The position numbers and the translations under genes are program-made. Source: Bacteroidales bacterium (GTDB lineage Bacteria > Bacteroidota > Bacteroidia > Bacteroidales > UBA12077). From it: a DNA stretch of 64,000 nucleotides. Below are positions 3,623-47,788 of this stretch, in pieces. Location of the stretch: assembly GCA_035269575.1 (NCBI GenBank), contig DATFIZ010000036.1, positions 5,185 to 69,184 on the forward strand, written 5' to 3'. Each line of letters begins with the position of its first letter. Position 1 is the stretch's first letter. The notes beneath the pieces are model-generated. The model ran no database searches. It worked only from the letters and a program-made list of their open reading frames with translations, and was not told the origin of the DNA.

Positions 3623-4660
3623 ATGAAAAAAATTTTAACTGTTTTTATCTTTTTTCTTACTATCCAGGCTTTTGCTCAAATTGGAGGTTCTCATACTTAC
3701 AGCTTTTTAAATTTAATCAACTCTGCCCGTGTAGCTTCTCTTGGCGGTGATGTTATTGCCATTAATGATAATGACCTAAACCTTACTTATCATAATCCGG
3801 CACTATTAACCCCTGAAATGAACCAGGACCTGGTATTAAATTATATCAACTACTTTACAGATATTAATTATGGATATGTTGCCTATGCGACAACTATTAA
3901 AGACAAAGGAATTTTTTCGGGTGGAATACAATACATCAATTACGGGAAATTTATTGCTGCCGATGAGAAAGGAATTATTACCGGTGAATTTAAAGCTGCC
4001 GAATATGCCTTTAACCTGGGTTATTCACGCTCCATTGATAGCTCTTTTCGTTTAGGAGTGAATGTTAAGCCAATTATTTCAACCCTCGAAAAATACACTT
4101 CGTTAGGCATCGCTGCAGATTTTGGAATCCTGTATCAAAATTCAAATCATTTATTTAATGCAGCGCTGGTGGTAAAAAATTTAGGAGCTCAATTGAAAGG
4201 ATATACCAGCGAAAAAGAAACTCTCCCTTTCAATATTCAGCTGGGAATATCACAAAAGTTAAGGCATGCACCATTACGTTTCACCGTAACTTTTGATCAT
4301 TTGGAAAAACCTGATTTAACTTATGATGTTCCGCAAAGCGAGTCTTCTGCAGATCCATTTTTTGAAGAATCCAAAGAGTCTAAAATAGATCAAATAGCCG
4401 ACCAGGTGATGCGGCATGTAATTTTAGGCATTGAGTTCAGTCCGCTGGAAAATCTTTATCTAAGAGCCGGATACAACTATCGCCGCCGTAAAGAGATGCT
4501 TATCGAATCCAACACATCAACCATCGGTTTTTCATGGGGATTTGGGGTAAAAATTTCCAAATTACATATTAGCTATGGGCGGGCAACCTACCACTTAGCC
4601 GGGGCTACCGATCATTTTTCAATTACCACCAATCTGGACCATTTTGGGCAGGGATGGTAA
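3623..4660 (+). CDS. porQ: Type IX secretion system outer-membrane barrel protein, PorQ-like
   Basis: ORF 3608..4660. ATG at 3623 gives the signal peptide MKKILTVFIFFLTIQAFAQ. The motif GGSHTYSFLNLINSARVASLGG...NPALL and a beta-strand-like alternating pattern to the C-terminus match PorQ. Family assignment is from memory. Confidence 0.7.
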   Translation: MKKILTVFIFFLTIQAFAQIGGSHTYSFLNLINSARVASLGGDVIAINDNDLNLTYHNPALLTPEMNQDLVLNYINYFTDINYGYVAYATTIKDKGIFSGGIQYINYGKFIAADEKGIITGEFKAAEYAFNLGYSRSIDSSFRLGVNVKPIISTLEKYTSLGIAADFGILYQNSNHLFNAALVVKNLGAQLKGYTSEKETLPFNIQLGISQKLRHAPLRFTVTFDHLEKPDLTYDVPQSESSADPFFEESKESKIDQIADQVMRHVILGIEFSPLENLYLRAGYNYRRRKEMLIESNTSTIGFSWGFGVKISKLHISYGRATYHLAGATDHFSITTNLDHFGQGW

Positions 4661-4970
4661 ATTATGGTAACCTGCTGCCAGGCTAAAAAAAGAAAGCACT
4701 GTTTATATTTTTTATTAAACCGTAACATTTGGAGATTCTTTTAACCTTAGTGGCTTCCCACTATAATAAAAAATACCAACAGGAAAAGAAAAAGATAAAT
4801 AAAATATCAAATATATTTTCAACCTTTGCGTTCGAATAAAAATGAAATAACAAAACAAAAAAATAAATTGCTCCCTGTTTAACGTTCTTTATTTAAATGA
4901 CATCCTCATTTTGCTTTGAGAATCTCAAAATCTCCAATCTCCAAAATTTGTCTAACGACAATTTTGGATT

Positions 4971-4978
4971 TACCTTTG
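4971..4978 (+). promoter_or_regulatory. -7 box (TACCTTTG) for the cmk-ispH-pfkA-priA block
   Basis: Exact TAnnTTTG 22 nt upstream of ATG 5000, with TTTG at 4947-4950 at about the -33 spacing. Confidence 0.5.
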
Positions 4979-4999
4979 ATGTTTTATTATTTTTACCAA

Positions 5000-5710
5000 A
5001 TGACAATCAAGAATAAAATTATCATAGCCATCGACGGATATTCATCCTCAGGAAAAAGCACCTTAGCTAAAGCTATTGCAAAACACCTGGGATATAAATA
5101 TATTGACAGCGGAGCCATGTATCGTGCAGTTACCTTATTTGCACTCCAAAACAATTTAGTTGACATACAAAATCATCAGGTAAATGAAAAAGAGCTAAAC
5201 TCTTCACTTGATGAGATAAAAATAAACTTCCGTTATAATCCCCGGAAGAACAGGCAGGAAACGTACCTCAATGAAAAAAATGTAGAAGATGAAATTCGCA
5301 AAATGGAAGTCTCCAATGCTGTAAGTATTGTTAGCAAACTAAAATTTGTCAGACAAAAGATGGTGCGTATTCAGCAAACCATGGGAAAAGAAAAAGGGAT
5401 TGTTATGGATGGACGCGATATTGGAACGGTTGTTTTTCCGGATGCTGAAATTAAAATTTTCATGAATGCCCAAGCAGAAGTAAGAGCCGAGCGAAGATAT
5501 AAGGAGCTTAAAGAAAATAAGCTGAACGTTAGTTACGACGAAATCCTGGAGAATGTCAAAAAACGCGACCATCTTGATGAAACCAGGAAAGAAAGTCCGC
5601 TAAAAAAAGCCGACGATGCAATTGAACTGGATAACAGCAACATGACTGAAAAAGAACAATTGCAATGGGTTTTAAGTTTAATACAGGAAAGAATGAATAA
5701 AATGGCTTAA
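5000..5710 (+). CDS. cmk: Cytidylate kinase
   Basis: ATG at 5000 gives MTIKNKIIIAIDGYSSSGKSTLAKAIA...IDSGAMYRA...DGRDIGTVVFPDA. The 28 codons upstream in the track ORF (from 4916) overlap a -7 box and are probably not translated. Confidence 0.93.
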   Translation: MTIKNKIIIAIDGYSSSGKSTLAKAIAKHLGYKYIDSGAMYRAVTLFALQNNLVDIQNHQVNEKELNSSLDEIKINFRYNPRKNRQETYLNEKNVEDEIRKMEVSNAVSIVSKLKFVRQKMVRIQQTMGKEKGIVMDGRDIGTVVFPDAEIKIFMNAQAEVRAERRYKELKENKLNVSYDEILENVKKRDHLDETRKESPLKKADDAIELDNSNMTEKEQLQWVLSLIQERMNKMA

Positions 5711-7609: not shown

Positions 7610-10087
7610 ATGAGCAGTTCTCCTGTTTTTGCCGATGTAATTCTTCCCCTCCCTTTAAAACAGCTGTTTACCTACAGCATTCCTAAATCACTGGAAAAAT
7701 CAGCAAAAACAGGAAAAAGGGTAATTGTACAATTTGGAAGCCGCAAAATTTTTGCAGCAATCATCCATACCATTCATCACAAGAAGCCTGCAGATTACGA
7801 AACAAAAGATATTTTTTCGGTATTAGATGAACACCCCATTGTAAATGATTCGCAACTAAAATTATGGCAATGGATTGCCGATTATTACATGTGCTCGCTG
7901 GGCGAAGTATTTAAAGCCTCTCTGCCGTCCGGATTAAAGCTTGAATCGGAAACAAAAGTTATTTATAATGCAAACCATATCGAAAATGAGATATTTACGA
8001 ATACAGAATCATTAGTTCTCGATTTTCTAAATAAAATAAACATTGCCAGTGTAAACGATATTGCCCGGGCACTGAATAAAAAAAATGCTCTGCCGGTCAT
8101 CAAATCACTTATCGATAAAAAAGCGGTCATTCTTGAAGAAAAACTAAAAGAGAGTTACAAACCTAAAACAGAAACCTATATTGGCCTGCACGAATCAATT
8201 ACAACCGAAAAACAATTAAACGATGCATTTGACTGGTTAAAAAATGCGCCCAAACAGCTTGATGTGCTCATCAGTTTCATCCAGCTATCGGGGGAATTTT
8301 CAAAAAAGGACCCTGCTGAAGTCAGCAGGCAGGCTTTAATCAAAAAATCGGGGACAAACCATCAAATCATCAAAACATTAATGAAGAAAAATATTTTAAC
8401 CGAGTATGAAAAAACAGCCAGTCGTCTCGACCATTCATCAAGCGTTGCCCAAAAGGCAAAACAACTGTCAATAGCCCAGGAGCAGGCACTTCAATCCATT
8501 CAAAAACAATTTTCTGAAAAACAAGTGGTTTTGTTACATGGCGTAACCTCGAGCGGAAAAACAGAAATATATATTCAACTGATACAGGAACAGCTTGACC
8601 AGGGCAAACAGGTTTTATATTTATTGCCTGAAATTGCTTTAACTGCACAAATCATTAACCGTCTGAAATCGGTATTTGGCAACAGGGTGGGAATCTATCA
8701 CTCTAAATTTAACGATGGCGAACGGGTTGAAGTTTATCAGAATGTTCTGAAAAACAGTAAAGAAAACCATTATGATATCATCCTGGGGGTTCGTTCATCC
8801 CTGTTTTTGCCTTTTTCGAAGCTGGGATTAATTATTATTGACGAAGAGCACGAAAACACCTACAAACAATATGACCCGGCACCACGCTACAATGCCCGTG
8901 ACAGTGCCATTGTACTGGCTCAAATTCACCATGCCAACGTACTGCTCGGAACAGCAACCCCGTCTGTTGAAAGCTATTTTAATGCAAAAACGGATAAATA
9001 CGGACTTGTAGAGCTAAATTCAAGATTTCAGGAAATTAAGCTCCCCGAAATAATATTGAGCGATACGCTGAAGGCAAGAAAAAAGAAACAGATGAAGTCG
9101 CATTTTAGCCCGGCATTACTGGATAGTATTAAAGCATCGCTCGAAAACAACGAGCAAATCATCCTTTTCCAGAACAGGCGTGGCTTTGCTCCTTTTTTAG
9201 AATGCGAAACCTGTGGGTGGATACCTTATTGTACCCACTGCGATGTAACGATGACCTATCACAAGCAGCATAATGAGCTGGTTTGTCACTATTGCGGTTA
9301 CACCATCAAAAACCCAAAAGTATGTAAAGCCTGTGGCAATCCTTCGTTATCGACCCGTGGCTTTGGCACCGAAAAAATTGAAGACGAGATAAAAATCTTT
9401 TTTCCGGATGCCAAAGTTAAGCGTATGGATCTGGACTCCACAAGATCCAAGTATGCTTACGAAAATATCATTGCCGGATTTGAGCAGGGAGAAATTGATA
9501 TCTTAATTGGCACCCAAATGGTATCGAAAGGATTGGATTTTGATAATGTGTCACTGGTAGGAATTTTGAATGCCGACAATATGCTGAATTATCCCGATTT
9601 CAGGGCTTTTGAGCGCAGCTATCAATTAATGGCCCAGGTAAGCGGACGGGCCGGGCGAAAAAACAAACAAGGCAAAGTGATTATCCAGACCAGTCATCCG
9701 GAACATCAGATTTTACAATTTGTATTGGATAATAAATACCAGGAAATGTACAAATCACAATTGCTTGAACGTAAAAATTTCAATTACCCACCATTTTGCC
9801 GGTTGATTTATATCAGCATAAAACACAAAAAAGCCGATTTAGTAGAAAACTCTGCCAACCATTTAGCCAATAACTTAAAAAAAATTTTCGGTAAAAGAGT
9901 GTTAGGCCCCGAATCTCCGGTAATTGGGAGGATACAAAATATGTATATCAAAAAAATATTGATCAAAATCGAACGGCAACGGTCCTTTCAAAAAGCAAAA
10001 ACACTTTTGGATGAACAAATCATTCAGCTGGTTACAACAGATAGCTACAAAACCATTCAAATATCCATTGATATCGATCCGATTTAA
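7610..10087 (+). CDS. priA: Primosomal replication-restart helicase PriA
   Basis: FADVILPLPL N-terminus, GVTSSGKTE Walker A, IIDEEHE, and a Cys-rich zinc region CETCGW...CTHCD...CHYCG...CKACG. Confidence 0.95.
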   Translation: MSSSPVFADVILPLPLKQLFTYSIPKSLEKSAKTGKRVIVQFGSRKIFAAIIHTIHHKKPADYETKDIFSVLDEHPIVNDSQLKLWQWIADYYMCSLGEVFKASLPSGLKLESETKVIYNANHIENEIFTNTESLVLDFLNKINIASVNDIARALNKKNALPVIKSLIDKKAVILEEKLKESYKPKTETYIGLHESITTEKQLNDAFDWLKNAPKQLDVLISFIQLSGEFSKKDPAEVSRQALIKKSGTNHQIIKTLMKKNILTEYEKTASRLDHSSSVAQKAKQLSIAQEQALQSIQKQFSEKQVVLLHGVTSSGKTEIYIQLIQEQLDQGKQVLYLLPEIALTAQIINRLKSVFGNRVGIYHSKFNDGERVEVYQNVLKNSKENHYDIILGVRSSLFLPFSKLGLIIIDEEHENTYKQYDPAPRYNARDSAIVLAQIHHANVLLGTATPSVESYFNAKTDKYGLVELNSRFQEIKLPEIILSDTLKARKKKQMKSHFSPALLDSIKASLENNEQIILFQNRRGFAPFLECETCGWIPYCTHCDVTMTYHKQHNELVCHYCGYTIKNPKVCKACGNPSLSTRGFGTEKIEDEIKIFFPDAKVKRMDLDSTRSKYAYENIIAGFEQGEIDILIGTQMVSKGLDFDNVSLVGILNADNMLNYPDFRAFERSYQLMAQVSGRAGRKNKQGKVIIQTSHPEHQILQFVLDNKYQEMYKSQLLERKNFNYPPFCRLIYISIKHKKADLVENSANHLANNLKKIFGKRVLGPESPVIGRIQNMYIKKILIKIERQRSFQKAKTLLDEQIIQLVTTDSYKTIQISIDIDPI

Positions 10088-16782: not shown

Positions 16783-17247
16783 CTAAAGATTTCTCCTTCT
16801 TCCTTTGCGGGAATTAGCCCAAAATGGCTTTAAATTATCATCTCTAAGTTTATATTGATTATTTCCATAAGAGAAATTTTTTGCAACATAATGATTTTCC
16901 GGCAAGCCATCTGCATGATATACATTCAAATCAATATCTGTTCCGGATACTAGTTCATCAACCATTTCAGATACAAGTTTAGCTGGTCCCAAATGAATAT
17001 TTGATACTTGTTCCTTATCATTAATATTATGTTTAATAAGCAAGTGGGTACCCGTTGAATACTTCCCAGTAGTCTCTGTGCAAGGTTCTTCAATTACTTT
17101 AACCAAGCTTCCGGATATTTCATTCACTTGAGTTTGTATACCCTCTTGCGCAATTCCACGGTTATCCCCTACTCCTTTTTGAGCAAAACTAAATACTGTT
17201 AAACTCGCTAAAACTAATGTAGTTAATAAAATTTTTGTCCAATTCAT
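16783..17247 (-). CDS. Secreted protein of unknown function
   Basis: 154-aa ORF with signal peptide MNWTKILLTTLVLASLTVFSFAQ. The central HLGP...LRDDNLKPFW pattern recalls a small periplasmic family sometimes labelled MamS/MamX-like; that is an unverified memory. The C-terminus is basic (RKGRRRNL). Confidence 0.6.
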   Translation of the reverse strand: MNWTKILLTTLVLASLTVFSFAQKGVGDNRGIAQEGIQTQVNEISGSLVKVIEEPCTETTGKYSTGTHLLIKHNINDKEQVSNIHLGPAKLVSEMVDELVSGTDIDLNVYHADGLPENHYVAKNFSYGNNQYKLRDDNLKPFWANSRKGRRRNL

Positions 17248-17372
17248 ATCAATTCCTTTTTTAATTAGTTATTATATGTTTATATCTATATACTTTAATA
17301 TATGTGACACCATATGTTTTAATTTATTACACAAAAAATATTGCATCGATTCTGAAACCTTGATTTTATTTA

Positions 17373-17656
17373 TCATTGAACGATTTCTTATTTCAGGGGC
17401 TTTGCCCCGGACCCCACATACTTTCTTGTCTTGAAACAAGAAAGTAAGCAAAGAAATTCAAGGCTGCGCCCGCCTCACTCGAAAAACTACGCGATGTGAG
17501 CTAAAAAATCTAAACTTGCACTTCCCTACGGTCAGTGGTTGCCTTCGGCGAGCTCGCACAAAACGCTCGGTTCGAACAACAGATTTTTTTTAACGCTCAC
17601 TGTGCTTGTTTTTCGGCTCGCCGGACAAGGCCAATCCGAAAACGAATCGTCAATCA
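17373..17656. other. GC-rich imperfect palindromic element (candidate structured RNA or MITE-like insertion)
   Basis: The outer arms pair: 17373-17410 (tcattgaacgatttcttatttcaggggctttgccccgg) with 17621-17656 (ccggacaaggccaatccgaaaacgaatcgtcaatca). The middle arms pair: 17481-17511 with 17581-17614. An 11-bp hairpin sits at 17419-17446. The apical region holds the perfect palindromes GCGAGCTCGC (17548-17557) and GTTCGAAC (17570-17577). Composition is visibly GC-richer than the flanks. Confidence 0.6.
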
Positions 17657-17778
17657 TTTTTTTATCGGACAATAATGAAAAAATATTTAAAAAAACAGAT
17701 TGAAGTTGATAACAAATAAAGCTTCTTCTTTTGTTTCGGTATTCTTTTCAATAATTTTATGACAAAATACCATTTGAC

Positions 17779-20700
17779 ATGAAATTTATTGCCGATTTAC
17801 ATATCCACTCCCATTTTTCAATGGCTACCAGCAAAAAGCTGACCCCCGAACATCTTGACTATTGGGCTAAGCTAAAAGGAATTAAAGTTGTCGGAACGGG
17901 GGATTTCTCTCATCCGGGATGGACTGCAGAATTGAAAGAAAAAATTGAACCGGCAGAACCGGGTTTATTTAAGCTGAAAGATGAATTTAAAATCAAAAGT
18001 CCGGTTCCGGAGAGTAACACGAATGCACCACGCTTTTTGTTAAGTGCCGAAATAAGCAATATTTACAAGAAAAACGGGAAAGTACGTAAAATACATAATG
18101 TAATTCTGGCTCCCAATTTTGAGGTGGTAGATAAAATTCAGCAGAAGCTTAGCCACATGAATTTCAACATTACCTCAGACGGACGTCCGATTCTTGGGCT
18201 AGATGCAAAACATCTGTTAGAAATGTGCCTGGAAATCTCGGATAAATTTTTTTTTATTCCGGCACATATCTGGACGCCCTGGTTTTCTGCATTAGGTTCC
18301 AAATCAGGATTTAACAGTATTGAAGAATGTTTCGAGGACTTGTCGAAACATATTTATGCGTTGGAGACAGGACTTTCAACCGACCCGGCATTAAACTGGA
18401 TGTGTAGTTTTCTCGATCGCTATACGTTAATTTCCAATTCCGATGCCCATTCACCCGAAAAATTAGGCCGAAATGCCAATCTTTTCGATACAGACGTTAA
18501 CTATTATTCAATAACGGAGGCTCTTAAAACCAGTGATGAAAGGTTTTCTGGAACCTTTGACATGTTCCCGCAGGAAGGGAAATATCATTACGACGGACAC
18601 CGGAAATGCAAGGTCTGCTGGGATCCGGTTCAAACCATGAAACATCATAGCATTTGTCCTGTTTGTGGCAAAAAGGTTACGGTAGGTGTTGTAAATCGCA
18701 TTGTAGAGTTATCTGACAGGGTAAATATTGAAGAGCGTCCAAACCGGAAACCTTTTTACTCGATTATCCCCCTTTCTGAAATTTTAGCGGAGATAGAAGG
18801 TGTTGGAGAAAAATCACAAAAAGTAAAAAAACAGTATGAGCAGCTCATCGCCAAAGCGGGTTCAGAATTCAATATTTTACATTTCTTACCGGTTGAACAA
18901 CTAAAAGAAATGGGTGGAGAAGTATTAAGTGAAGCTATCCAAAGAATGCGAAACCATCAAATCATCATCAAAGAAGGATTTGACGGAGAATATGGTGAGA
19001 TAAAAGTTTTCCATCCCGACGAATCAAAAATTTTTAAAGACAAATCGGCTTTGTTCGAAACAACAAATTTACCGGAGATACCTCAACGTAAACTGCTCAA
19101 TTTCGATCTGCAACAATTCCAAAAGTTAAAAGCTATAAACAAATCTTCTGATATAGCTGCAGAACCGGAAACTATGTATATAACAAAACAAGAAGGGTTA
19201 TTACAAGGCTTAAACCCTGAACAGGCTAAGGCGGTAAAACATGACAAAGGGCCGGCTATTATACTGGCAGGCCCAGGCACAGGAAAAACAAATGTCTTGA
19301 CACGAAGAATTGCTTATCTGGTAAAGGAAAAACAGATAAAACCTGAAAACATTTTAGCTGTAACGTTTACCAACCAGGCAGCCGAAGAGATGCTTTCCCG
19401 TACCCAAAAACTATTAGAGCAAAAGATGGATTTGGAGAAGCTCCATATCTCAACATTCCATGCCCTGGGTTATTCAATACTAAACGACTATTACCGGGGA
19501 AAAAATCAAAACAGCATCCATATTATCAACGACGAGGATAAATTTTTTATGCTACAATACCTTTTCCCTGAAAAAAAGAAAACAGAACTGAAACACTGGA
19601 AACAAAAAATTACAGAAATTAAGCAAAAAGGTTTATTCCCTGATGATATTGAACATGAAACGACACGCACCCTGTTCGAACAATATTCGGCAGAGCTGCA
19701 AAAAAACCATCTGTTTGATTTGGACGATATGATTTATGAGCCTCTGCTAATTTTACGTAAAGATGAAATGCTTCTGCAAAAACTACGGCAACGGTTTCAA
19801 TGGATAATGATTGATGAATATCAGGACATTAACGATGCACAATACCAACTTATTAAATTATTATCTACAAATGAAAACCAGCATATTACGGTAATTGGTG
19901 ATCCCAACCAGGCTATTTACGGTTTTCGCGGTTCAAACTCCAAATACATCAGCCGGTTTATTGAAGATTTCCCTAAAGCAGCAATTTACAAACTTAACCT
20001 GAGTTACCGATGTACGAAAAACATATTAAAAGCTTCGGGCAATATTTTAAAGGAAGATAATTTTTTACAAGGATTAGACGATGGTTTACAGATAAAAGTA
20101 TCGACCCAACAAACCGATAAAAGTGAAGCTGAATATATTGCGCGCGAAATAGAAAGCTTATCCGGCGGATTGCGCTTTTTCTCTATGGATAGCAATGTTT
20201 CGAACGGAGAAAAAGACACCGAAATTGAAAGTTTATCGGATTTTGCCATATTGTGCCGCACCAAAGCTCAAATGGCGGCCATTGAAAAAGCATTGCATGA
20301 CCACAGCATTCCATGCCAAAAGATTAATGAAGATGAATTTTTAAAACACCGCATCACACGAGTACTGATAAACCTGTTAAAATTCAGCGGTGAACCGGAA
20401 AACCTGTTTCTGCGGAATAAAATTACAAGTCAGCTAAATATCAACCCCATATTACTGGATAAAATTCACAACCAATCCAACGATTTGCAATTAAATGAAT
20501 ACCTAAATTTTTTGTGGACAGAATTTATAGTAAATAAAACCGATGAAGACCAAAGGATTTTTGACAAATTTAAACACCTGGCTGCTAAATACAGGAATGA
20601 ACCGGAGAACTTTATTAAACATATTACATTAGGTCAGCCGGCAGATTTGTACCAACCGGAAATTGAGAAGGTAAGTTTAATGACTATTCATGCAGCAAAA

Positions 20701-21000
20701 GGACTGGAGTTTACATGTGTTTTTATTGCCGGATGCGAAAACGGGTTAATTCCCTACTCTCTTTTTAAAGAACAAAAAACTGATAACGACGAAGAAAAGC
20801 GATTGCTTTATGTGGGCATGACCCGGGCCAAAACAATGCTTTATTTAACGCATGCCAAAAAGCGTTTTCTTAAAGGCCGTGAGTTACAACTGCCTAAAAG
20901 CCCCTTCCTGGGTCTTATCGAAAAACAGCTTACCGAGCAAACCAAAAGCGATTACAGGAAAACAGATAAAAATCACGGGCAATTAAGTTTGTTTGGTTAA
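17779..21000 (+). CDS. Fusion protein: Endonuclease-Q-like PHP nuclease plus zinc finger (N-terminal, about aa 1-415) and UvrD/PcrA-type SF1 helicase (about aa 475-1073)
   Basis: N-terminal part: ADLHIHSHFSMATS, GTGDFSHPGW, NSDAHSPEKLG, EGKYHYDGHRKCKVCWDPVQTMKHHSICPVCGKKV, GFDGEYGEI. C-terminal part: LNPEQAKAV, AGPGTGKT, TFTNQAAEEM, MIDEYQD, GDPNQAIYGFRGS, SYRC, TIHAAKGLEF, LLYVGMTRAK. Confidence 0.9.
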   Translation: MKFIADLHIHSHFSMATSKKLTPEHLDYWAKLKGIKVVGTGDFSHPGWTAELKEKIEPAEPGLFKLKDEFKIKSPVPESNTNAPRFLLSAEISNIYKKNGKVRKIHNVILAPNFEVVDKIQQKLSHMNFNITSDGRPILGLDAKHLLEMCLEISDKFFFIPAHIWTPWFSALGSKSGFNSIEECFEDLSKHIYALETGLSTDPALNWMCSFLDRYTLISNSDAHSPEKLGRNANLFDTDVNYYSITEALKTSDERFSGTFDMFPQEGKYHYDGHRKCKVCWDPVQTMKHHSICPVCGKKVTVGVVNRIVELSDRVNIEERPNRKPFYSIIPLSEILAEIEGVGEKSQKVKKQYEQLIAKAGSEFNILHFLPVEQLKEMGGEVLSEAIQRMRNHQIIIKEGFDGEYGEIKVFHPDESKIFKDKSALFETTNLPEIPQRKLLNFDLQQFQKLKAINKSSDIAAEPETMYITKQEGLLQGLNPEQAKAVKHDKGPAIILAGPGTGKTNVLTRRIAYLVKEKQIKPENILAVTFTNQAAEEMLSRTQKLLEQKMDLEKLHISTFHALGYSILNDYYRGKNQNSIHIINDEDKFFMLQYLFPEKKKTELKHWKQKITEIKQKGLFPDDIEHETTRTLFEQYSAELQKNHLFDLDDMIYEPLLILRKDEMLLQKLRQRFQWIMIDEYQDINDAQYQLIKLLSTNENQHITVIGDPNQAIYGFRGSNSKYISRFIEDFPKAAIYKLNLSYRCTKNILKASGNILKEDNFLQGLDDGLQIKVSTQQTDKSEAEYIAREIESLSGGLRFFSMDSNVSNGEKDTEIESLSDFAILCRTKAQMAAIEKALHDHSIPCQKINEDEFLKHRITRVLINLLKFSGEPENLFLRNKITSQLNINPILLDKIHNQSNDLQLNEYLNFLWTEFIVNKTDEDQRIFDKFKHLAAKYRNEPENFIKHITLGQPADLYQPEIEKVSLMTIHAAKGLEFTCVFIAGCENGLIPYSLFKEQKTDNDEEKRLLYVGMTRAKTMLYLTHAKKRFLKGRELQLPKSPFLGLIEKQLTEQTKSDYRKTDKNHGQLSLFG

Positions 21001-34718: not shown

Positions 34719-36521
34719 CTAAAAAATACCCATTTGTTGCATTAATACGGAAGCATTCATATTTTTTGTTATTCCATTGCGTAATTTATAATCAAAGAAA
34801 ATTTCTTGTCCGCTAATTTCTACTTCAAAACATTGATTGTTTATTTTTCCTGGATTTTTGTTTTCCAGCTCACACAACGTTAAATCATGTGTTGCAATAA
34901 CACCTGTTGCGTTAAGCCTGATTAAATGTTCGACATACTTCCATGATCCTTTGGCTTTATCAACAGAATTTGTCCCTTTTAATATTTCATCCAAAAGAAT
35001 AAATAGTTCCTTTCCCGATTTTAATTCATTAATGATTTGCTTTAATCTTTTTAACTCGGCATAAAAATAGGATTCGTTTTCTTTTAACGAATCAGAAGTG
35101 CGCATCCCTGAGAAGAGGTGCACCAGACTAAAATTAAACTGTTTTGCACAAACCGGCATACCCGTCATTGCTAAAATCAAATTAACACCTATCGTACGCA
35201 GGAAAGTGCTCTTACCGGCCATATTTGCTCCTGTAATTATATTTATTTGTCCTGCTTTATTAATTTTAAAATCATTATCAACTCTTTTTTCAGGCAAAAT
35301 TAAGGGATGTCCGAGTTCTTTAGTTTCTAAAACGACATGGTTTACTATTTCGGGAAAAACAAACTCCGGATGTTTACATGTGAAGTCTGCCATACAGCAA
35401 TATGCATCCAGTTGTCCAATCGCATTAATCCATTGCGTTATATTTTTACCGTATTGTTTTTTCCAGGCTTCTAAACGCATTAACGATAACAAATCCCACA
35501 TTAACGTGGCATTTAATATCAGCCCTACTATTAAATTTAACCGCGAATCAAAAGCATCAATAATTCGGGTAAGTTTCTTTAAAATAGTACTGGCAGATTG
35601 TTTATTGTGATTTACATAAAACTGTTTTTTCAGCTGATTAAGCTCAAAACTATGAAATGAAGAATCTTCAATGATTTGAATCAATTGATGATAATTTTTT
35701 AAAATGGCTGCTTCTTCAGTAATTATTCGTTGTTCTTTATTCGTACGGTGCATAATAATACTGGCAAACAGCAACTGGCATAAAGCCAGGAAAGCGAATA
35801 CCGAATAATGCATCCATCCAACCATTAACAAAAATAATGAAAGGATTGTTAATACTGGAAAGATCCAAACAATCAATTTATAATACCATTTATGAATGAA
35901 ATACTCAGGCTCATTAATCCATACATTAATTTTCTGGTTATCATCGGGCGAAATTTGTACTAACATACCGGTAGCTTGTAAATACTGTCGCCAATCAATT
36001 TTTACGGATAGCTCCTGAACGGCTTGCTGTGTATGTTCAATTTTTTGTTTGTCAAGAAGAGGGTTTAATAACCTGTTGGCTAAAAATGTTCTTCCTGCTT
36101 GTGTAAATGCCCGATTTAAATACTGAAACAGAGAACCTTCACCAAACAAATCCAGATCATATGCATAGGCATGTTCACGATGAGTGAACTGTTCTCCATT
36201 ATTAAATGCAGTAAAATCATACCTCAATGCTTTAAGTTCCAGCTTGTTTATTTGTATTAAACGCTGCACCAGTTTTAACTTTTGATTTTGCGTCGCATGC
36301 AAAGCAACAAGTCCAACAAATACAGTAACCCATGCAATAGAAATGCCTATTTTAATCCAGGAAAAATCTTTTACCGTAATCACAATTCCAACGCAAAAAA
36401 GAACAAATGAAACAAACCGAAACACCCCAAGCCATATAATTTTTTGCTTAATGTCGGATTCTTTTTGCTGGAAAGTTTGAACTCTACTCTTATAGATATT
36501 TTTAATATCGAATGCTGACAT
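34719..36521 (-). CDS. MutS-related protein: N-terminal membrane domain plus MutS domain-V ATPase, with no mismatch-binding domain
   Basis: Several hydrophobic helices in the first half. C-terminal ITGANMAGKSTFLRTIG, ILLDEILKGTNS and IATHDL. No GxFxE-type domain I. Confidence 0.85.
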   Translation of the reverse strand: MSAFDIKNIYKSRVQTFQQKESDIKQKIIWLGVFRFVSFVLFCVGIVITVKDFSWIKIGISIAWVTVFVGLVALHATQNQKLKLVQRLIQINKLELKALRYDFTAFNNGEQFTHREHAYAYDLDLFGEGSLFQYLNRAFTQAGRTFLANRLLNPLLDKQKIEHTQQAVQELSVKIDWRQYLQATGMLVQISPDDNQKINVWINEPEYFIHKWYYKLIVWIFPVLTILSLFLLMVGWMHYSVFAFLALCQLLFASIIMHRTNKEQRIITEEAAILKNYHQLIQIIEDSSFHSFELNQLKKQFYVNHNKQSASTILKKLTRIIDAFDSRLNLIVGLILNATLMWDLLSLMRLEAWKKQYGKNITQWINAIGQLDAYCCMADFTCKHPEFVFPEIVNHVVLETKELGHPLILPEKRVDNDFKINKAGQINIITGANMAGKSTFLRTIGVNLILAMTGMPVCAKQFNFSLVHLFSGMRTSDSLKENESYFYAELKRLKQIINELKSGKELFILLDEILKGTNSVDKAKGSWKYVEHLIRLNATGVIATHDLTLCELENKNPGKINNQCFEVEISGQEIFFDYKLRNGITKNMNASVLMQQMGIF

Positions 36522-38174: not shown

Positions 38175-39827
38175 TTAATCTTCTAATCCAAGCACATCTA
38201 ATCCTTGTTCAAATACCACATCTTTGGGAATATTTTCTTTCTGAATTCTGTATAAATCATCTAAGAGTTCATCTCTGATATAACCATTTTGTTCTACCAG
38301 TTTTTTTGCTGCATCATAATTACCATCTCCCTGAATTAACAATATTTCTTCGGCCAGTTGAAGCATTGCTTTCTGCATTTTTTCGAAATCAATTTTATAC
38401 GTTCCAAGCTTATTGTTTCTGGTAAATGCACCTTTTTCCTGGAAATAATAAAACCTAATCATGTTGGCAACACCCTGATCGTTAGAGATTCCAAAACGAA
38501 CGGAACGAAAAATATCGGCCATATAAGTAACATAATTATCCATAAGATCTGTTTCCTGCAGTTCACCCATTTCATGGAGTTTAGTTAAAAAAAACAGACT
38601 CAAAATATCATTTTTACACTCTTCAATTACATTATATTGATCTTTTAACCCATCACGAACAGGTCCTTTTTGGGTTACCATATTTTTTAAACCAAGAGCG
38701 CTACCAACTTCGTAAAACATGGTGTTTTGGAAAAAAGCATCGAACTTAACATGTTTTCTTTGATCTTTCTCAATAAGTAAATGGGCAATCGGTTTTAAAA
38801 TTTTTTCAAATTTTGCTTCCATTACATTTTTAAATTGTAATTTTCGACTACCTACTTCTAACTGTACTCTCCCGTCACGGGGCAAAGTAATGGCAATCTT
38901 TTTACTTCCGGCATTCCAGTTTCCTGAACAATAAATAACATCATATACCATAATATCCGAAAGAGCTCCAGGAAATTCTTTTTTATATTTTTCATCAACC
39001 GGCAAATTCTTCTGTAAATAAGGTACTAATAATGAAAACTTCTCCATGTTTTTGCTCGATTCAACATCTCTGACAAGTACCATCGATTGATAAGAAGCTT
39101 TAGAATAGTAAAGTCTGTCCTCGACATCTTCAATAGGCCCAACAATAAAATCAACAACATTATCTTTCATCATCATCCATGCGATATTACTTTGGTAATA
39201 GTCATCATTTAATAATGCATCAGCTCTTTTAACGAGATAATTTTGAAAATCATTATCTTCGGCTAAAGAGGCTGCTTGCTTCATTAATTCTGCTATTTTT
39301 TCCAGTTTATTTTTATAGGCTTTATGATAAGGAACCGTCTGAAGGCCACCTACTTCATTTCTACGTAAAAGAGTATACGAATCAAACTTTCTAAGATTGT
39401 CAAAGGTATCAAATTCCTGATAGGTCATATCCTCCGGATAAAAGTTAGCTCCCTTAGGTTTGGCTCCTATGTCATCTACAAAAGGTTTCATTCCGTTAAG
39501 CCTATCCCAGGGACCATAGTTGATATAAAAATATTTCCGGATTTTCTCGTTGGTAATTGATTGTAAGTATTTTTCTTTATTTCCGCAGGTTTGAATCCAA
39601 TATAGTTCATCAATAATTTTGGCTGCTTCAAAAAGTAGGGGTAGCATTTCTTTCTGATTTTTGCTTAAAACACCCAAATCAGTTGTTAATTCTACATCAG
39701 CATAATTAGCTAATAATTTGTCTATTTTTGTCTGCTTTTGAGTTTGTTGTTTTTCAGTTTTATTTTTACAGGTTGTAAAAAACAGGGGAACCGATAACAA
39801 ACATAAAACGATCATCTTTTTATACAT
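38175..39827 (-). CDS. DPP3 (M49)-family lipoprotein, possibly catalytically degenerate
   Basis: Lipoprotein-like signal (LFFTTC). Size and overall pattern fit the short bacterial DPP III-like group. The second metal motif EECKND is present, but the first motif reads FYEVGSALG where I expect HExxH. Confidence 0.75.
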   Translation of the reverse strand: MYKKMIVLCLLSVPLFFTTCKNKTEKQQTQKQTKIDKLLANYADVELTTDLGVLSKNQKEMLPLLFEAAKIIDELYWIQTCGNKEKYLQSITNEKIRKYFYINYGPWDRLNGMKPFVDDIGAKPKGANFYPEDMTYQEFDTFDNLRKFDSYTLLRRNEVGGLQTVPYHKAYKNKLEKIAELMKQAASLAEDNDFQNYLVKRADALLNDDYYQSNIAWMMMKDNVVDFIVGPIEDVEDRLYYSKASYQSMVLVRDVESSKNMEKFSLLVPYLQKNLPVDEKYKKEFPGALSDIMVYDVIYCSGNWNAGSKKIAITLPRDGRVQLEVGSRKLQFKNVMEAKFEKILKPIAHLLIEKDQRKHVKFDAFFQNTMFYEVGSALGLKNMVTQKGPVRDGLKDQYNVIEECKNDILSLFFLTKLHEMGELQETDLMDNYVTYMADIFRSVRFGISNDQGVANMIRFYYFQEKGAFTRNNKLGTYKIDFEKMQKAMLQLAEEILLIQGDGNYDAAKKLVEQNGYIRDELLDDLYRIQKENIPKDVVFEQGLDVLGLED

Positions 39828-44886: not shown

Positions 44887-45705
44887 ATGAAACAAAAACA
44901 TTTCAAAAAAATTAATATAATTTTTTTAATATGCCTATGTTTATGGCATTCTGATTCTTTTGCTCAAAACGTAAAAGTTGAAGCAGGGAAATCGGCGGCA
45001 ATGAGTAACACATCTGTTACAATAACTGATATTTGGTCTGTTTACAATAACCAGGCAGGGCTGGGTTATTTGAATAATATTTCTGCAGGCATCTTTCATC
45101 AGTCGGGATTCGTTAAACAGCAAAACATACAAGGTATTGGCTTTGCCTTACCGACAAAAACCGGAACCATTGCTGCCTCATATTCTTATTTTGGTTTTTC
45201 ACAATATAACGAAATGCAGGCCGGCCTGGCCTTTGGCCGCTCATTTACCCGATATTTTGCCGCAGGATTGCAAATCAATTACTTAAGTACCCGAATTGCC
45301 GATAACTATGGATCATCTAATACAGTTAATTTCGAAGTGGGTGTGCTTTCACAACCCATTGAGAATCTATTTATAGGAGCCCATGTATATAATCCATCAA
45401 GAAGTAAAATCGGGGACGAAGATATTCCTACTATATTTAAACTGGGGGCAGGATATTTATTTTCTGAAAAAGTATATTTTGGCATTGAAACGGAAAAAGA
45501 TCTTAAACACGATGCTATTTTTAAATCAGGACTCCATTATCAGTTAATAGAATATGTGTCTCTACAGGCAGGGATTTCAACAAATCCCACAAGATACTCG
45601 TTTGGAGTAGGGTTTCATTACACCAACATTCATGCTCATGTAGGATTCTTAAGACATCAAACGTTAGGTTTCACCCCATCATTTACGCTAGGTTATGGTT
45701 TTTAA
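44887..45705 (+). CDS. PorV/PorQ-like small outer-membrane beta-barrel protein
   Basis: ATG 44887 gives a signal peptide ending SFAQ. AGKSAAMSNTSVTITDIWSVYNNQAGLG parallels the PorQ N-terminal motif found in this window. C-terminal ...FTLGYGF. Confidence 0.6.
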   Translation: MKQKHFKKINIIFLICLCLWHSDSFAQNVKVEAGKSAAMSNTSVTITDIWSVYNNQAGLGYLNNISAGIFHQSGFVKQQNIQGIGFALPTKTGTIAASYSYFGFSQYNEMQAGLAFGRSFTRYFAAGLQINYLSTRIADNYGSSNTVNFEVGVLSQPIENLFIGAHVYNPSRSKIGDEDIPTIFKLGAGYLFSEKVYFGIETEKDLKHDAIFKSGLHYQLIEYVSLQAGISTNPTRYSFGVGFHYTNIHAHVGFLRHQTLGFTPSFTLGYGF

Positions 45706-47788
45706 ACGATTTCATCTTTTAAATTCCGTTTTGATGGTATTAATTTTATGGGGTATCAATGATAAAACATTTGCCCAAACCGAACCTTTCAACAAACAAA
45801 CCATTGAAGACCTGATTGAAGAAATAGCTACATCAACTGATGAAGAGCTTGACTATACAACACTTTACGACAACTTAACCTTTTATTTATATAATCCTCT
45901 AAATATCAATACAGCAACGCAGGAAGAACTTGAAAAACTTCATTTGTTGAACGACTTTCAGATAAAAAGCCTTCAGGACTATATTTCCAGAAACGGAGAA
46001 ATGGTTTCTCTCTATGAACTTCAATTGGTGCACGGATTCTCATTGGATCAAATTGAAATGATTCTGCCTTTTGTATCTGTTTCTGAAGAAATAACCCAAA
46101 GAAAAACTTCAATCAAAAATATTTTAAAATACGGCAACAATCAAATTTTTATCCGCGCTCAAAATGTATTAGAAGAACAGGTTGGGTACAGTTCTATTTC
46201 AGATTCATCCCTTGCAGTCAGCCCGAACTCAAGATACTTGGGAAGTTCATACAGAATTTACTCACGTTACAAATTTCAATACAGAGATAAAGTGTATTTC
46301 GGATTTACCGCAGAGAAAGATCAGGGCGAAGAGTTTTTCAAAGGAAATAACAAACAAGGTTTTGATTATTATTCTGCCCATCTACAAATAAATAATATCG
46401 GTATTTTTAAAACAATAACATTGGGAGACTTTGAGGCTAAATACGGGCAGGGACTGGTTTTATGGTCGGGCTTTGGAATGGGCAAATCACCCTATGTTTT
46501 AAATATAAGAAAAAGAGTCCAGGGACTGAGAAAATACTCCTCAACAAACGAAAATCTTTTTATGCGTGGTGCAGGAACAACTGTTGCCATTAAAGACTTT
46601 GATATATCTACCTTTTTATCCTATAAAAATATAGATGCAAACATTCAGGATAGTGTTGACAATGAAATTGCCACGGTAACATCATTCCAGAATACAGGAA
46701 TACATGCAACACCTTCTCAAATGGAGGATAAAGATGCAATTCGAGAAAATATCGTAGGAGGAAATATAACCTATAATCATACAAAATTTAAAGTAGGTAT
46801 TACGGGCGTATATTATAATTATGGGGCCGAACTGGTAAAAGACATTACACCCCAGAACCAATTTTATTACAAGGGCAAAGAAAATACGAATCTCAGCCTG
46901 GATTACCAGTTCAGTTTCCGGGATTTTTACTTTTTTGGAGAGGAGGCTATAAGCCAAAACGGAGGAAAGGCATTTTTAAATAGCATGATGATTAACCTGG
47001 CTCCGCAAATATCATTTTCAGCTTTACACAGGCACTACGACAAAAACTATCAGGCAAACAACAGCAATGCTTTTGGCGAAACCAGTAATGTTCGTAACGA
47101 ATCGGGATTATATCTCGGCCTTGAAGTACACCCGATAAAAAACTGGAAAATATCATCTTACTTTGATACATACCGTTTTTTGTGGTTAAAAACCGGGGTT
47201 GATGCCCCGTCGCAGGGTAATGAGTGGTTTGTTCAGGCTGATTATAACCCAACGCGCAACGTTAGTATCTACCTCAGATTAAAAAATGATATGAAACAAA
47301 AAGATAGAAATGCAGCAACAGGGATTGACGAGTTGGTGGATGAAAAGTTACTAAAAACACGTTTACACATAGCGTACCAGATTAATCAACGGTTTGCCCT
47401 TAAAAGCAGGGTAGAAACGACGAAATACCAAACAGATAATCAAGCAGCTGAATATGGATATATGATTTATCAGGATATTTTTTATGATCTACTAAAAATA
47501 CCATTATCTCTCAATACACGTTTTGCTGTTTTTGATACTGAATCGTATAACACCAGGATTTATGCATACGAGAGTGATATATTATATGCCTTTTCCATTC
47601 CGGCATATTATTCAAAAGGAACCCGTTTTTATTTTAACCTTAAGTATACTTTAGCTGAATTTATTGATTTATGGATTAGATATTCACAAACATTTTACGC
47701 TGATAAAAATGTCATTTCATCAGGGCTAAATCAAATTAACGGGAATACAAAATCGGAAATCAAGGCCCAACTACGTTTTAAACTCTAA
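45695..47788 (+). CDS. Outer-membrane beta-barrel-like protein with N-terminal ComEA-type helix-hairpin-helix module
   Basis: Signal peptide ending TFAQ. LNINTATQEELEKLHLLNDFQIKSLQDYISRNGEMVSLYELQLVHGFSLDQIEMILPFVSV follows the ComEA HhH pattern. The remaining ~560 aa are rich in alternating aromatic/polar strands. Overlaps the upstream gene by 11 nt. Confidence 0.7.
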   Translation: MVFKRFHLLNSVLMVLILWGINDKTFAQTEPFNKQTIEDLIEEIATSTDEELDYTTLYDNLTFYLYNPLNINTATQEELEKLHLLNDFQIKSLQDYISRNGEMVSLYELQLVHGFSLDQIEMILPFVSVSEEITQRKTSIKNILKYGNNQIFIRAQNVLEEQVGYSSISDSSLAVSPNSRYLGSSYRIYSRYKFQYRDKVYFGFTAEKDQGEEFFKGNNKQGFDYYSAHLQINNIGIFKTITLGDFEAKYGQGLVLWSGFGMGKSPYVLNIRKRVQGLRKYSSTNENLFMRGAGTTVAIKDFDISTFLSYKNIDANIQDSVDNEIATVTSFQNTGIHATPSQMEDKDAIRENIVGGNITYNHTKFKVGITGVYYNYGAELVKDITPQNQFYYKGKENTNLSLDYQFSFRDFYFFGEEAISQNGGKAFLNSMMINLAPQISFSALHRHYDKNYQANNSNAFGETSNVRNESGLYLGLEVHPIKNWKISSYFDTYRFLWLKTGVDAPSQGNEWFVQADYNPTRNVSIYLRLKNDMKQKDRNAATGIDELVDEKLLKTRLHIAYQINQRFALKSRVETTKYQTDNQAAEYGYMIYQDIFYDLLKIPLSLNTRFAVFDTESYNTRIYAYESDILYAFSIPAYYSKGTRFYFNLKYTLAEFIDLWIRYSQTFYADKNVISSGLNQINGNTKSEIKAQLRFKL

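Follow-up and report, generated by a model that had tools for sequence, protein, structure and literature searches.

An EndoQ-UvrD fusion protein from a Bacteroidales bacterium belongs to a recorded but uncharacterised long form of EndoQ

Does a single Bacteroidales gene encode both a complete EndoQ-type nuclease and a complete UvrD-type helicase, and what might such a protein do? A sequence-only reading of the window (the whole 64-kb stretch of DNA analysed) had proposed this fusion in one polypeptide, and we found both modules at full length. The open reading frame at 17779..21000 (+) has an ATG start and encodes 1073 aa with 0 internal stops, reading through as had been described. Public data contain a protein 100% identical to its product (P0001). 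The same EndoQ-helicase architecture recurs in >100 homologues, 1064-1131 aa long, that were assembled independently; the fusion is therefore not an assembly artefact. The features of the gene are as follows.

17779..21000, + strand: EndoQ-UvrD fusion gene, whole (1073 aa; stop codon counted in)
17779..18564, + strand: EndoQ PHP catalytic domain, ~aa 1-262 (residue-by-residue alignment to PfuEndoQ 5zb8)
18580..18687, + strand: zinc-binding domain, ~aa 268-303 (alignment to PfuEndoQ and 44 homologues)
18688..19023, + strand: EndoQ C-terminal helical domain, aa 304-415, ending GFDGEYG (Foldseek against 5zb8; PF27218)
19024..19197, + strand: linker, aa 416-473, mostly predicted to be disordered, with one helix at 444-454
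19042..19056, + strand: internal clamp-binding-like motif KSALF (degenerate), aa 422-426, at a fixed offset after GxDGEYG
19198..20958, + strand: SF1A UvrD/PcrA-like helicase, aa 474-1060 (Pfam, Foldseek and motifs); motifs (aa) Q 482, Walker A GPGTGKT 498-504, Ia 529-535, Walker B DEYQD 679-683, III 707-718, IV YRC 743-745, V 969-978 and VI VGMTRAK 1012-1018
20980..20994, + strand: predicted C-terminal beta-clamp-binding motif QLSLF, aa 1068-1072 of 1073 (bacterial consensus QL[D/S]LF)

The motifs by which the two modules had been recognised were where the sequence-only reading had placed them (DLHIHSH at 6-12, GTGDFSHP at 39-46, NSDAHSP at 220-226 and GFDGEYG at 400-406; in the helicase, GPGTGKT, DEYQD and VGMTRAK at the positions listed above). 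To that reading we also owed two suggestions, a profile search and an AlphaFold comparison with the Pyrococcus furiosus enzyme. The NCBIfam model TIGR00375 matched residues 5-408 over practically its whole length (profile positions 2-374 of 374), and Pfam UvrD-helicase and UvrD_C were both matched. PfuEndoQ chains 5zb8/7k30 were recovered by phmmer over residues 5-413 (E ~1e-54). An AF2 model of the 1073-aa protein (pLDDT 79, pTM 0.61), compared by Foldseek, placed the EndoQ module on 5zb8/7k30 with a target-normalised TM of 0.86-0.88 and an rmsd of 2.9-3.1 A over ~400 residues, and the three-domain EndoQ fold, including the C-terminal helical domain, was present. Precomputed annotations of homologues record Pfam PF27218 (MJ0043_C), whose match likely corresponds to that helical domain (aa 304-415). 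The TIGR00375 score was 167.3 bits, below the NCBIfam cut-off of 326.6 bits. This threshold is high, the model being of the hypothetical-equivalog kind; falling short of it marks a divergent subfamily, and homology stands. Because the score lies below this cut-off, the NCBI name is merely “UvrD-helicase domain-containing protein”, as seen for HKL07551.1 [Bacteroidales bacterium] in the same 90%-identity cluster.

The residues of the active site support the same assignment. The seven PHP metal ligands (H8, H10, E91, H106, H163, D222 and H224) were invariant in 44 homologues and aligned in 5zb8 with H8, H10, E76, H84, H139, D193 and H195 of the Pfu enzyme, respectively. The lesion-pocket residues H163, T166, E196, T197, G198, L199, S200, N220 and D222 were likewise invariant among the 44 homologues; compared with the Pfu pocket (H139, T142, E167, L168, G169, L170, S171, N191 and D193), there was one change, Leu to Thr at T197. 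The roles of these ligand and pocket residues come from structural work on EndoQ, in which Pfu H139, G169 and S171 are among the pocket residues conferring selectivity for uracil and hypoxanthine (PMC5961232, PMC8307549). With the lesion pocket and the zinc and C-terminal helical domains conserved, the N-terminal part is of the EndoQ type and not a generic PHP phosphoesterase.

The zinc site required a correction. It had been described as CxxC-x14-CxxC, but the gap from C280 to C293 is 12 residues and C280 is kept in just 17 of the 44 homologues. The predicted arrangement is instead H274-x2-C277 ... C293-P-V-C296-G, with all four ligands conserved; H274, which is invariant, aligns with the first Cys of the PfuEndoQ zinc site (CxxC...CPxCG).

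The helicase module carries the full set of SF1A motifs from Q to VI that had been claimed for it, and residues Q482, K503, D679/E680, Q711, R744 and R1016 were invariant in the 44 homologues. The catalytic residues known for either module are all present and under strong purifying selection. Pfam UvrD-helicase matched residues 478-732 (E 1.6e-74), with UvrD_C at E 1.5e-39, and Foldseek aligned the AF2 model with DNA-bound Deinococcus radiodurans and Escherichia coli UvrD and with PcrA (TM 0.74-0.76), the 1A/1B/2A/2B four-subdomain fold being present. The NCBIfam equivalog models for PcrA, Rep and UvrD scored 359.9, 337.5 and 292 bits against cut-offs of 911, 951 and 1144 bits, respectively. 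Judged by these scores, the helicase is UvrD-like, not PcrA, UvrD or Rep itself, and neither module is orthologous to a characterised enzyme. The 2B region is poorly conserved and ~60 aa shorter than that of PcrA (PcrA 440-554 corresponds to query 906-960), and the stretch aligned with the PcrA “GIG” reads NINP; therefore, regulation may differ from that of UvrD. The canonical PcrA/UvrD C-terminal extension is missing, with PcrA residues past ~650 unmatched.

Further inspection revealed two candidate clamp-binding motifs, QLSLF and KSALF, both absent from the sequence-only reading. QLSLF stops one residue short of the C-terminus and fits the clamp-motif consensus of bacterial EndoQ, QL[D/S]LF (PMC4858679, Suppl. 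Fig. S1). Among long homologues, 100/117 and 99/124 (~80-85%) had a motif of the form Q[LMIVF]x[LMIF][FLWY] within their final 14 aa, and Q1068 was invariant in the alignment. The internal motif lies in the linker, where pLDDT falls below 50 at residues 422-429 and 456-471 and where the alignment also shows a conserved FDL..Y..L patch. Its family consensus is Q-x-S/A-L-F, with K in place of Q in the Bacteroidales protein, and F426 was invariant. It was found exactly 15 aa past GxDGEYG in 72/117 and 64/134 homologues, against a chance expectation of ~6 homologues for an occurrence anywhere in a 35-aa window. Its position coincides with the C-terminal QDSLF of a stand-alone relative (L021).

How common is this architecture? 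A search for the EndoQ domain returned 3,705 cluster representatives at E<=0.001. Among the best 149 of these 3,705 (50%-identity clusters), 146 included helicase sequence, and the matched phyla were Bacteroidota, Elusimicrobiota, Armatimonadota, Cloacimonadota, Planctomycetota, Aminicenantes and Riflemargulisbacteria. The survey of phyletic spread that the sequence-only reading had suggested thus shows, by these matches, that the nearest proteins with an EndoQ domain are predominantly fusions and that the fusion is widespread across many bacterial phyla. The novelty which that reading had implied is exaggerated, with the fusion so frequent, routinely annotated and its long forms tabulated in 2016. 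Stand-alone relatives also exist, including one at 62% identity (L019), and end in NQLNLF, ELSLF or QDSLF. We considered whether the EndoQ-only loci L019-L021 might be split genes and rejected this; their neighbours encode an LD-carboxypeptidase, an MFS transporter and an ORF without a Pfam match, no helicase gene lies downstream, and they are genuine stand-alone forms. Since these relatives lack an adjacent helicase, the endonuclease does not strictly need one.

The gene has a core-chromosome setting, in a window that also holds parAB, priA, topo IV, recJ and a mutS2-like gene. No conserved operon partner was found in the window or at three distant homologue loci, where the neighbours in other phyla differ and are mostly housekeeping genes. 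A possible non-coding RNA upstream of the gene was discarded, as Rfam gave no match across the whole window; the GC-rich stretch considered for it is a repeated insertion.

Taking these results together, we consider it probable, with some reservation, that long-form EndoQ acts on deaminated or abasic DNA as a clamp-tethered nick-and-unwind enzyme. The clamp motif or motifs would hold the protein on DnaN that has stayed behind on the DNA, much as the PIP box of archaeal EndoQ does with PCNA. The EndoQ module would flip out a uracil, hypoxanthine, xanthine or abasic site and cut the bond immediately 5' of the lesion, leaving a 3'-OH and a lesion-bearing 5'-phosphate. The tethered helicase would then load at the nick on the intact strand and run along it 3'->5', the same way as repair synthesis proceeds; we infer this polarity from family membership alone. 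In doing so the helicase would displace the lesion-carrying 5' strand, in the manner of PcrA behind the Rep nickase or UvrD after UvrC or MutH incision. A polymerase would extend the 3'-OH, and a 5' flap nuclease or exonuclease together with ligase would complete the repair. Overall, the scheme would amount to a glycosylase-free form of alternative excision, or nucleotide incision repair, for deaminated and abasic DNA. Which lesions the long form accepts, the polarity of its helicase, its loading at nicks and its binding to the clamp are extrapolated here, and the proposed coupling of incision to strand displacement is reasonable.

An alternative account is that the two activities are independent, with the helicase simply the clamp-associated UvrD/PcrA-like enzyme of this lineage, whose fusion to EndoQ serves merely for co-expression or co-recruitment to the clamp and involves no direct hand-off from nick to unwinding. 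We regard this as unlikely, though several points favour it. Close stand-alone relatives carry their own C-terminal clamp motif and have no adjoining helicase gene, and archaeal and Bacillus EndoQ act alone (PMC4357722, PMC5961232); the stand-alone B. pumilus and B. subtilis enzymes, the sole bacterial ones reported as tested, have PfuEndoQ-like endonuclease activity (PMC5961232). The linker, moreover, is long and predicted to be disordered and the model has a pTM of 0.61; no fixed inter-domain geometry backs a direct hand-off. What weighs against independence is that the fusion has persisted across many phyla, in nearly all of the closest representatives, and that the missing C-terminal extension and divergent 2B suggest specialisation for a partner in cis.

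The remaining alternatives give the protein a different job altogether. A role as a nuclease-helicase against phage or foreign DNA, attacking uracil-containing or deaminated invading DNA or acting like “Wukong”, seems improbable to us. An antiviral role for bacterial EndoQ has been suggested and relayed in a review (PMC8307549), one homologue (L027) lies near toxin-antitoxin genes, and Wukong is superficially alike in size and in its layout of N-terminal PHP and C-terminal ATPase and degrades DNA in vitro (10.1101/2024.12.27.630466). Yet the published description of Wukong is of a CRISPR-repressed exonuclease/ATPase and not of an EndoQ/UvrD protein. PADLOC models for the UvrD-type GajB match the helicase half, but these matches (GajB and RTasHel) concern the generic UvrD part, with none on the EndoQ half, and no GajA-like partner was found in the window. 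The core-chromosome setting with unconserved, mostly housekeeping neighbours and the conserved terminal beta-clamp motif, typical of replication and repair factors, also argue against defence, as does the near absence of the EndoQ domain from mobile elements (0 matches in 50,697 phage records and 1 match in 72,556 plasmid records). Very improbable, in our view, is an AddA/RecB-style end-processing helicase-nuclease whose PHP domain would degrade DNA processively in the 3'-5' direction, like those of PolX or Pol III alpha. In both PolX and DnaE the PHP domain is a 3'-5' exonuclease, and the model shows weak structural likeness to AddA, AdnB and RecB (Foldseek ranks 30-50); however, the likeness to AddA/RecB is limited to the helicase core (TM 0.3-0.5 normalised by target length), no partner subunits lie near the gene in the window or at the three homologue loci, and the N-terminal module is EndoQ-homologous throughout, including its zinc and C-terminal domains and its base-recognition pocket.

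The clamp-tethered nick-and-unwind reading can be extended, tentatively and with more doubt than confidence, to a broader proposal: that bacterial EndoQ exists principally in the long form, as a self-contained beta-clamp-tethered machine, possibly using two motifs to fill both pockets of the DnaN dimer. Following the replication fork, this machine would excise deaminated and abasic bases independently of glycosylases, and would do so in many phyla, most of them anaerobic or uncultured. If this were true, it would be a bacterial repair pathway never reconstituted so far. Reviews present EndoQ as an archaeal enzyme found in just “a few bacteria”, whereas we counted 3,705 EndoQ-domain representatives, the closest 149 of which are nearly all fusions. 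For the step after the nick, models for archaea invoke an unidentified helicase or strand displacement (PMC4357722, Figure 10 legend). A natural combination of nickase, UvrD-type motor and clamp-docking peptide offers a direct handle on that step; the value of the fusion lies in experimental access to the downstream reaction, the architecture itself having been recorded previously.

In line with the sequence-only reading, which knew of no experimental description of the fusion, a full-text literature search found no biochemical study of it and no measured activity for any long-form EndoQ. Archaeal EndoQ (P. furiosus PF1551 and T. kodakarensis TK0887; 5zb8, 7k30) has the three-domain fold in common with the Bacteroidales protein at ~32% identity and shares its metal ligands and, except for Leu to Thr at T197, its lesion-pocket residues. 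By contrast, the archaeal enzyme is stand-alone, with ~400-424 aa and a Cys4 zinc site, whereas the Bacteroidales protein has a zinc site predicted from the alignment to be His-Cys3 and adds a ~60-aa linker and a 600-aa SF1A helicase. The archaeal enzyme docks on PCNA through a C-terminal PIP box, which boosts cleavage (PMC4858679), and the Bacteroidales protein would dock on its clamp through the predicted bacterial QLSLF, likewise at the C-terminus.

With UvrD, PcrA and Rep (2is1, 3pjr, 1uaa, 4c2t) the helicase shares the SF1A motifs and the four-subdomain fold at 25-30% identity, with scores far under the equivalog cut-offs; it differs in its shorter 2B without GIG, its lack of the C-terminal extension and the nickase fused in cis. 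UvrD, PcrA and Rep start from nicks made by partner nucleases (UvrC, MutH and RepD). Wukong combines a PHP nuclease at the N-terminus with an ATPase at the C-terminus in one polypeptide of ~1026 aa and needs the active sites of both; it is described as a DNase/exonuclease without specificity, encoded in a CRISPR-Cas locus and toxic if de-repressed (10.1101/2024.12.27.630466). Unlike Wukong as so described, the long-form EndoQ family is chromosomal, bears a clamp motif and is EndoQ-specific.

The closest match is to proteins already on record. According to Miyazono et al. (2018), three EndoQ families “based on the domain organization” had been distinguished by Shiraishi et al. (2017) (PMC5961232). 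Shiraishi et al. (2016) grouped EndoQ by motif position into short (401-464) and long (941-1244) forms and, in Suppl. Fig. S1, listed ~34 bacterial homologues with positions 941-1244, all of which have a beta-clamp motif at the C-terminus (PMC4858679); the passages seen of that paper make no mention of an internal second motif. The architecture has been on record for ~10 years, and the Bacteroidales protein joins a known but uncharacterised kind: its 1073 aa fit the length class of the long group (~945-1244), its motif likewise sits at the very end as QL[D/S]LF, and the 2016 list covers the same phyla, including Bacteroidales (Proteiniphilum), Rhodothermus and Cloacimonetes.

The gene under study (window positions 17779-21000, plus strand) is one open reading frame with an ATG start, 1073 codons and no internal stops, in line with the continuous frame that the sequence-only reading had proposed for this fusion of an EndoQ-like nuclease with a UvrD-type helicase; each motif that it had listed was found at the position it gave. 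The NCBIfam profile TIGR00375 aligned end to end (positions 2-374 of 374) with residues 5-408, and a PDB sequence search matched residues 5-413 to Pyrococcus furiosus EndoQ (PfuEndoQ; 5zb8 and 7k30, E ~1e-54) and residues ~472-1055 to PcrA (E 7e-71), UvrD and Rep. Pfam placed UvrD-helicase at residues 478-732 (E 1.6e-74), together with UvrD_C and AAA_19. The identities of the two domains are, in our judgment, nearly certain. All 44 aligned full-length homologues (1064-1131 aa), which come from independent assemblies, share the EndoQ-helicase architecture, so a misassembly or frameshift artefact is ruled out. We built an AlphaFold2 model on this 44-homologue alignment (mean pLDDT 79, pTM 0.61), in which the linker is flexible, with pLDDT below 50 at residues 422-429 and 456-471. 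One homologue, P0102 (1451 aa), carries PF14528, a LAGLIDADG homing-endonuclease family, besides the EndoQ and UvrD domains; the extra segment may be an intein within the fusion protein.

The N-terminal module proved to be a true EndoQ rather than a generic PHP phosphoesterase, as its metal ligands, lesion pocket and three-domain fold all match PfuEndoQ. By alignment, the PfuEndoQ metal ligands (H8, H10, E76, H84, H139, D193 and H195; roles from PMC5961232) correspond to H8, H10, E91, H106, H163, D222 and H224. The PfuEndoQ pocket, formed by H139, T142, E167, L168, G169, L170, S171 and N191, lets in uracil and hypoxanthine and shuts out thymine and adenine (PMC5961232, PMC8307549); the aligned equivalents are H163, T166, E196, T197, G198, L199, S200 and N220. 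All of these ligand and pocket residues are invariant across the 44 fusion homologues, and the model superposes on PfuEndoQ over ~400 residues covering all three EndoQ domains (target-normalised TM 0.86-0.88, rmsd 2.9 A). The zinc site had been read as CxxC-x14-CxxC, which is not the conserved arrangement: C280 is kept in only 17 of 44 homologues, and 12 residues, not 14, separate it from C293. By contrast, C277, C293 and C296 are invariant, and so is H274, at the position of the leading Cys in the archaeal CxxC, giving a conserved, predicted His-Cys3 site. Because the TIGR00375 score (167 bits) falls below the NCBI cut-off of 326.6, the public counterpart HKL07551.1, which belongs to the same 90%-identity cluster, bears no more specific name than 'UvrD-helicase domain-containing protein'.

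The full SF1A motif set described from the sequence is present in the helicase module, and the key residues Q482, K503, D679/E680, Q711, R744 and R1016 are invariant in the 44-homologue alignment. The modelled helicase resembles DNA-bound UvrD and PcrA (TM 0.74-0.76). We rejected orthology to PcrA, UvrD or Rep, with equivalog scores at about one-third of the cut-offs and identities of 25-30%. Unlike PcrA and UvrD, the fusion helicase lacks ~60 residues of the 2B region (PcrA 440-554 versus query 906-960) and the C-terminal extension past about residue 650; where PcrA has its 'GIG' stretch, the query reads NINP, poorly conserved. In UvrD, Rep and PcrA, 2B acts as an autoinhibitory domain whose effect is relieved by partners such as MutL and RepD; divergence of this region beside a fused partner would fit regulation in cis. 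The protein has two complete catalytic modules, both kept by selection.

Absent from the sequence-only account were the clamp-binding motifs. The protein terminates in GQLSLFG, and QLSLF, a predicted clamp-binding motif, fits the bacterial beta-clamp consensus QL[D/S]LF (PMC4858679 Suppl. Fig. S1). A terminal motif, defined as Q[LMIVF]x[LMIF][FLWY] in the last 14 residues, occurs in 100 of 117 close homologues and, among diverse representatives 1000 aa or longer, in 99 of 124; Q1068 is kept in all 44 aligned sequences. There is also an internal Qx[SA]LF, exactly 15 residues past GxDGEYG, in 72/117 and 64/134 homologues; chance would place a motif of this type anywhere in a 35-aa window in ~6. 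The query copy is degenerate (KSALF, 422-426), with L425 and F426 still conserved. Stand-alone bacterial EndoQs among the close relatives terminate in such a motif (NQLNLF, ELSLF and QDSLF at loci L019, L020 and L021, respectively). The simplest scenario has a clamp-binding EndoQ gaining a helicase, with the old motif left as an internal relic and a new one at the new C-terminus. Archaeal EndoQ has a C-terminal PIP box that binds PCNA with a KD of 55 nM and stimulates cleavage (PMC4858679).

A phmmer search of 1.84 billion 50%-identity representatives with the EndoQ module returned 3,705 matches at E<=1e-3 and 1,033 at E<=1e-30. Among the best 149 of the 3,705, the helicase was full in 117, partial in 29 (most shorter than ~860 aa and apparently truncated) and missing from 3. 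Named sources included Bacteroidales/Bacteroidota, Elusimicrobiota, Armatimonadota, Cloacimonadota, Sedimentisphaerales, Aminicenantes and Riflemargulisbacteria. Stand-alone EndoQ forms also occur among close relatives, including a 477-aa Bacteroidales MAG protein (62% identity) with no helicase gene in its flanks. An 82%-identical orthologue of this Bacteroidales-type protein lies on a contig labelled 'MAG: Thiohalospira sp.', a gammaproteobacterium (L003, JBKHIH010000015.1); misbinning or contamination in that MAG, not horizontal transfer, is the probable cause.

The window is core chromosome, with priA, parA/parB, DUF5683, an SLT/LysM transglycosylase, topo IV, a mutS2-like gene, recJ and lysS. 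Genes flanking three distant homologues are unrelated between loci, and no conserved partner gene was found there or in the window. The EndoQ module matched none of 50,697 phage records and one of 72,556 plasmids; that one match is a stand-alone 'endonuclease Q family protein' encoded by a Brevibacillus replicon of 733 kb. PADLOC matches were to generic UvrD (GajB) models and confined to the helicase half. Features of the window, and copies of an insertion upstream of the fusion gene, are as follows.

7610-10087, plus strand: PriA
16783-17247, minus strand: ORF of 154 aa, no Pfam match reported at E<=1e-5
17334-17689: non-coding insertion of ~320-356 bp, intergenic, just upstream of the fusion gene
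17419-17429 and 17436-17446: perfect 11-nt hairpin within the insertion
34719-36521, minus strand: MutS-family protein of 600 aa with domains III and V only (MutS2-like)
38175-39827, minus strand: ORF of 550 aa, no Pfam match reported at E<=1e-6
45695-47788, plus strand: ORF of 697 aa, no Pfam match reported at E<=1e-6
47785-49521, minus strand: RecJ (DHH/DHHA1/RecJ_OB)
61622-63799, plus strand: ORF of 725 aa, no Pfam match reported at E<=1e-6
4314-4631, 4804-5122 and 8928-9243 of metagenome contig L029: three copies of the insertion

With a GC content of 46-48%, against 35% in the whole window, the insertion is GC-richer than its surroundings. It is missing from the orthologous loci L001, L002 and L011, whose ~210-bp intergenic region aligns to both its flanks. 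Metagenome contigs in which megablast detected no other similarity to the window contain copies of it at 89-94% identity: L032 has one, besides the three of L029, and L031, L033 and L035 have partial ones. Rfam gave no match for the insertion, which resembles a mobile, non-coding repeat of the MITE type.

We lean towards a coupled nick-and-unwind repair role for the fusion protein. It would be tethered to DnaN in the way that archaeal EndoQ is to PCNA. It would flip out the lesion and cut immediately 5' of dU, dI, dX or an AP site, producing a 3'-OH and a lesion-bearing 5'-phosphate. From the nick, the helicase would load onto the intact strand and travel 3'->5', in the direction of repair synthesis, peeling off the 5' end that bears the lesion, much as PcrA acts behind RepD and UvrD after UvrC or MutH. 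We favour the intact strand because translocation on the nicked strand would run away from the lesion and be unproductive. A polymerase, then a flap or 5' exonuclease, and ligase would finish the repair. RecJ is a 5'->3' ssDNA exonuclease and could in principle degrade the displaced strand; recJ lies ~27 kb from the fusion gene, and we infer no linkage to it.

Independent activities that are only co-recruited to the clamp would agree with the stand-alone relatives and the floppy linker, but retention of the fusion and specialisation of the helicase make this rather unlikely. An anti-phage or anti-foreign-DNA role is less probable still, given the genomic context, the phage and plasmid counts and the clamp motif. 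It would include possible kinship with 'Wukong', a DNase of ~1026 aa that pairs a PHP exonuclease at the N-terminus with a C-terminal ATPase (bioRxiv 10.1101/2024.12.27.630466), compared here by description only. An AddA/RecB-like end processor, contradicted by EndoQ homology over the full module length, seems very improbable.

As the sequence-only reading had supposed, our literature search found no biochemical or genetic study of any long-form protein. Nor did we find mention, in the EndoQ literature searched, of the His-Cys3 zinc site, of the relic clamp motif at a fixed offset or of the fusion being near-universal in the nearest relatives by EndoQ domain. These three points add modestly to what is known. 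The long-form architecture itself was already on record in the field. Bacterial EndoQ homologues bear beta-clamp motifs according to Shiraishi et al. 2016 (PMC4858679), whose Suppl. Fig. S1 shows 10 short homologues with the motif at 401-464 and ~34 long ones with it at 941-1244, the latter from Proteiniphilum (Bacteroidales), Rhodothermus, Cloacimonetes, Desulfovibrio, Geobacter metallireducens and Zymomonas, among others. Miyazono et al. 2018 (PMC5961232), in the passage relaying Shiraishi et al. 2017, give three EndoQ families 'based on the domain organization', of which families 2 and 3 are bacterial. Pfam also records MJ0043_C (PF27218) alongside UvrD domains on fusion homologues. The protein is thus an uncultured Bacteroidales orthologue within a known, widespread family.
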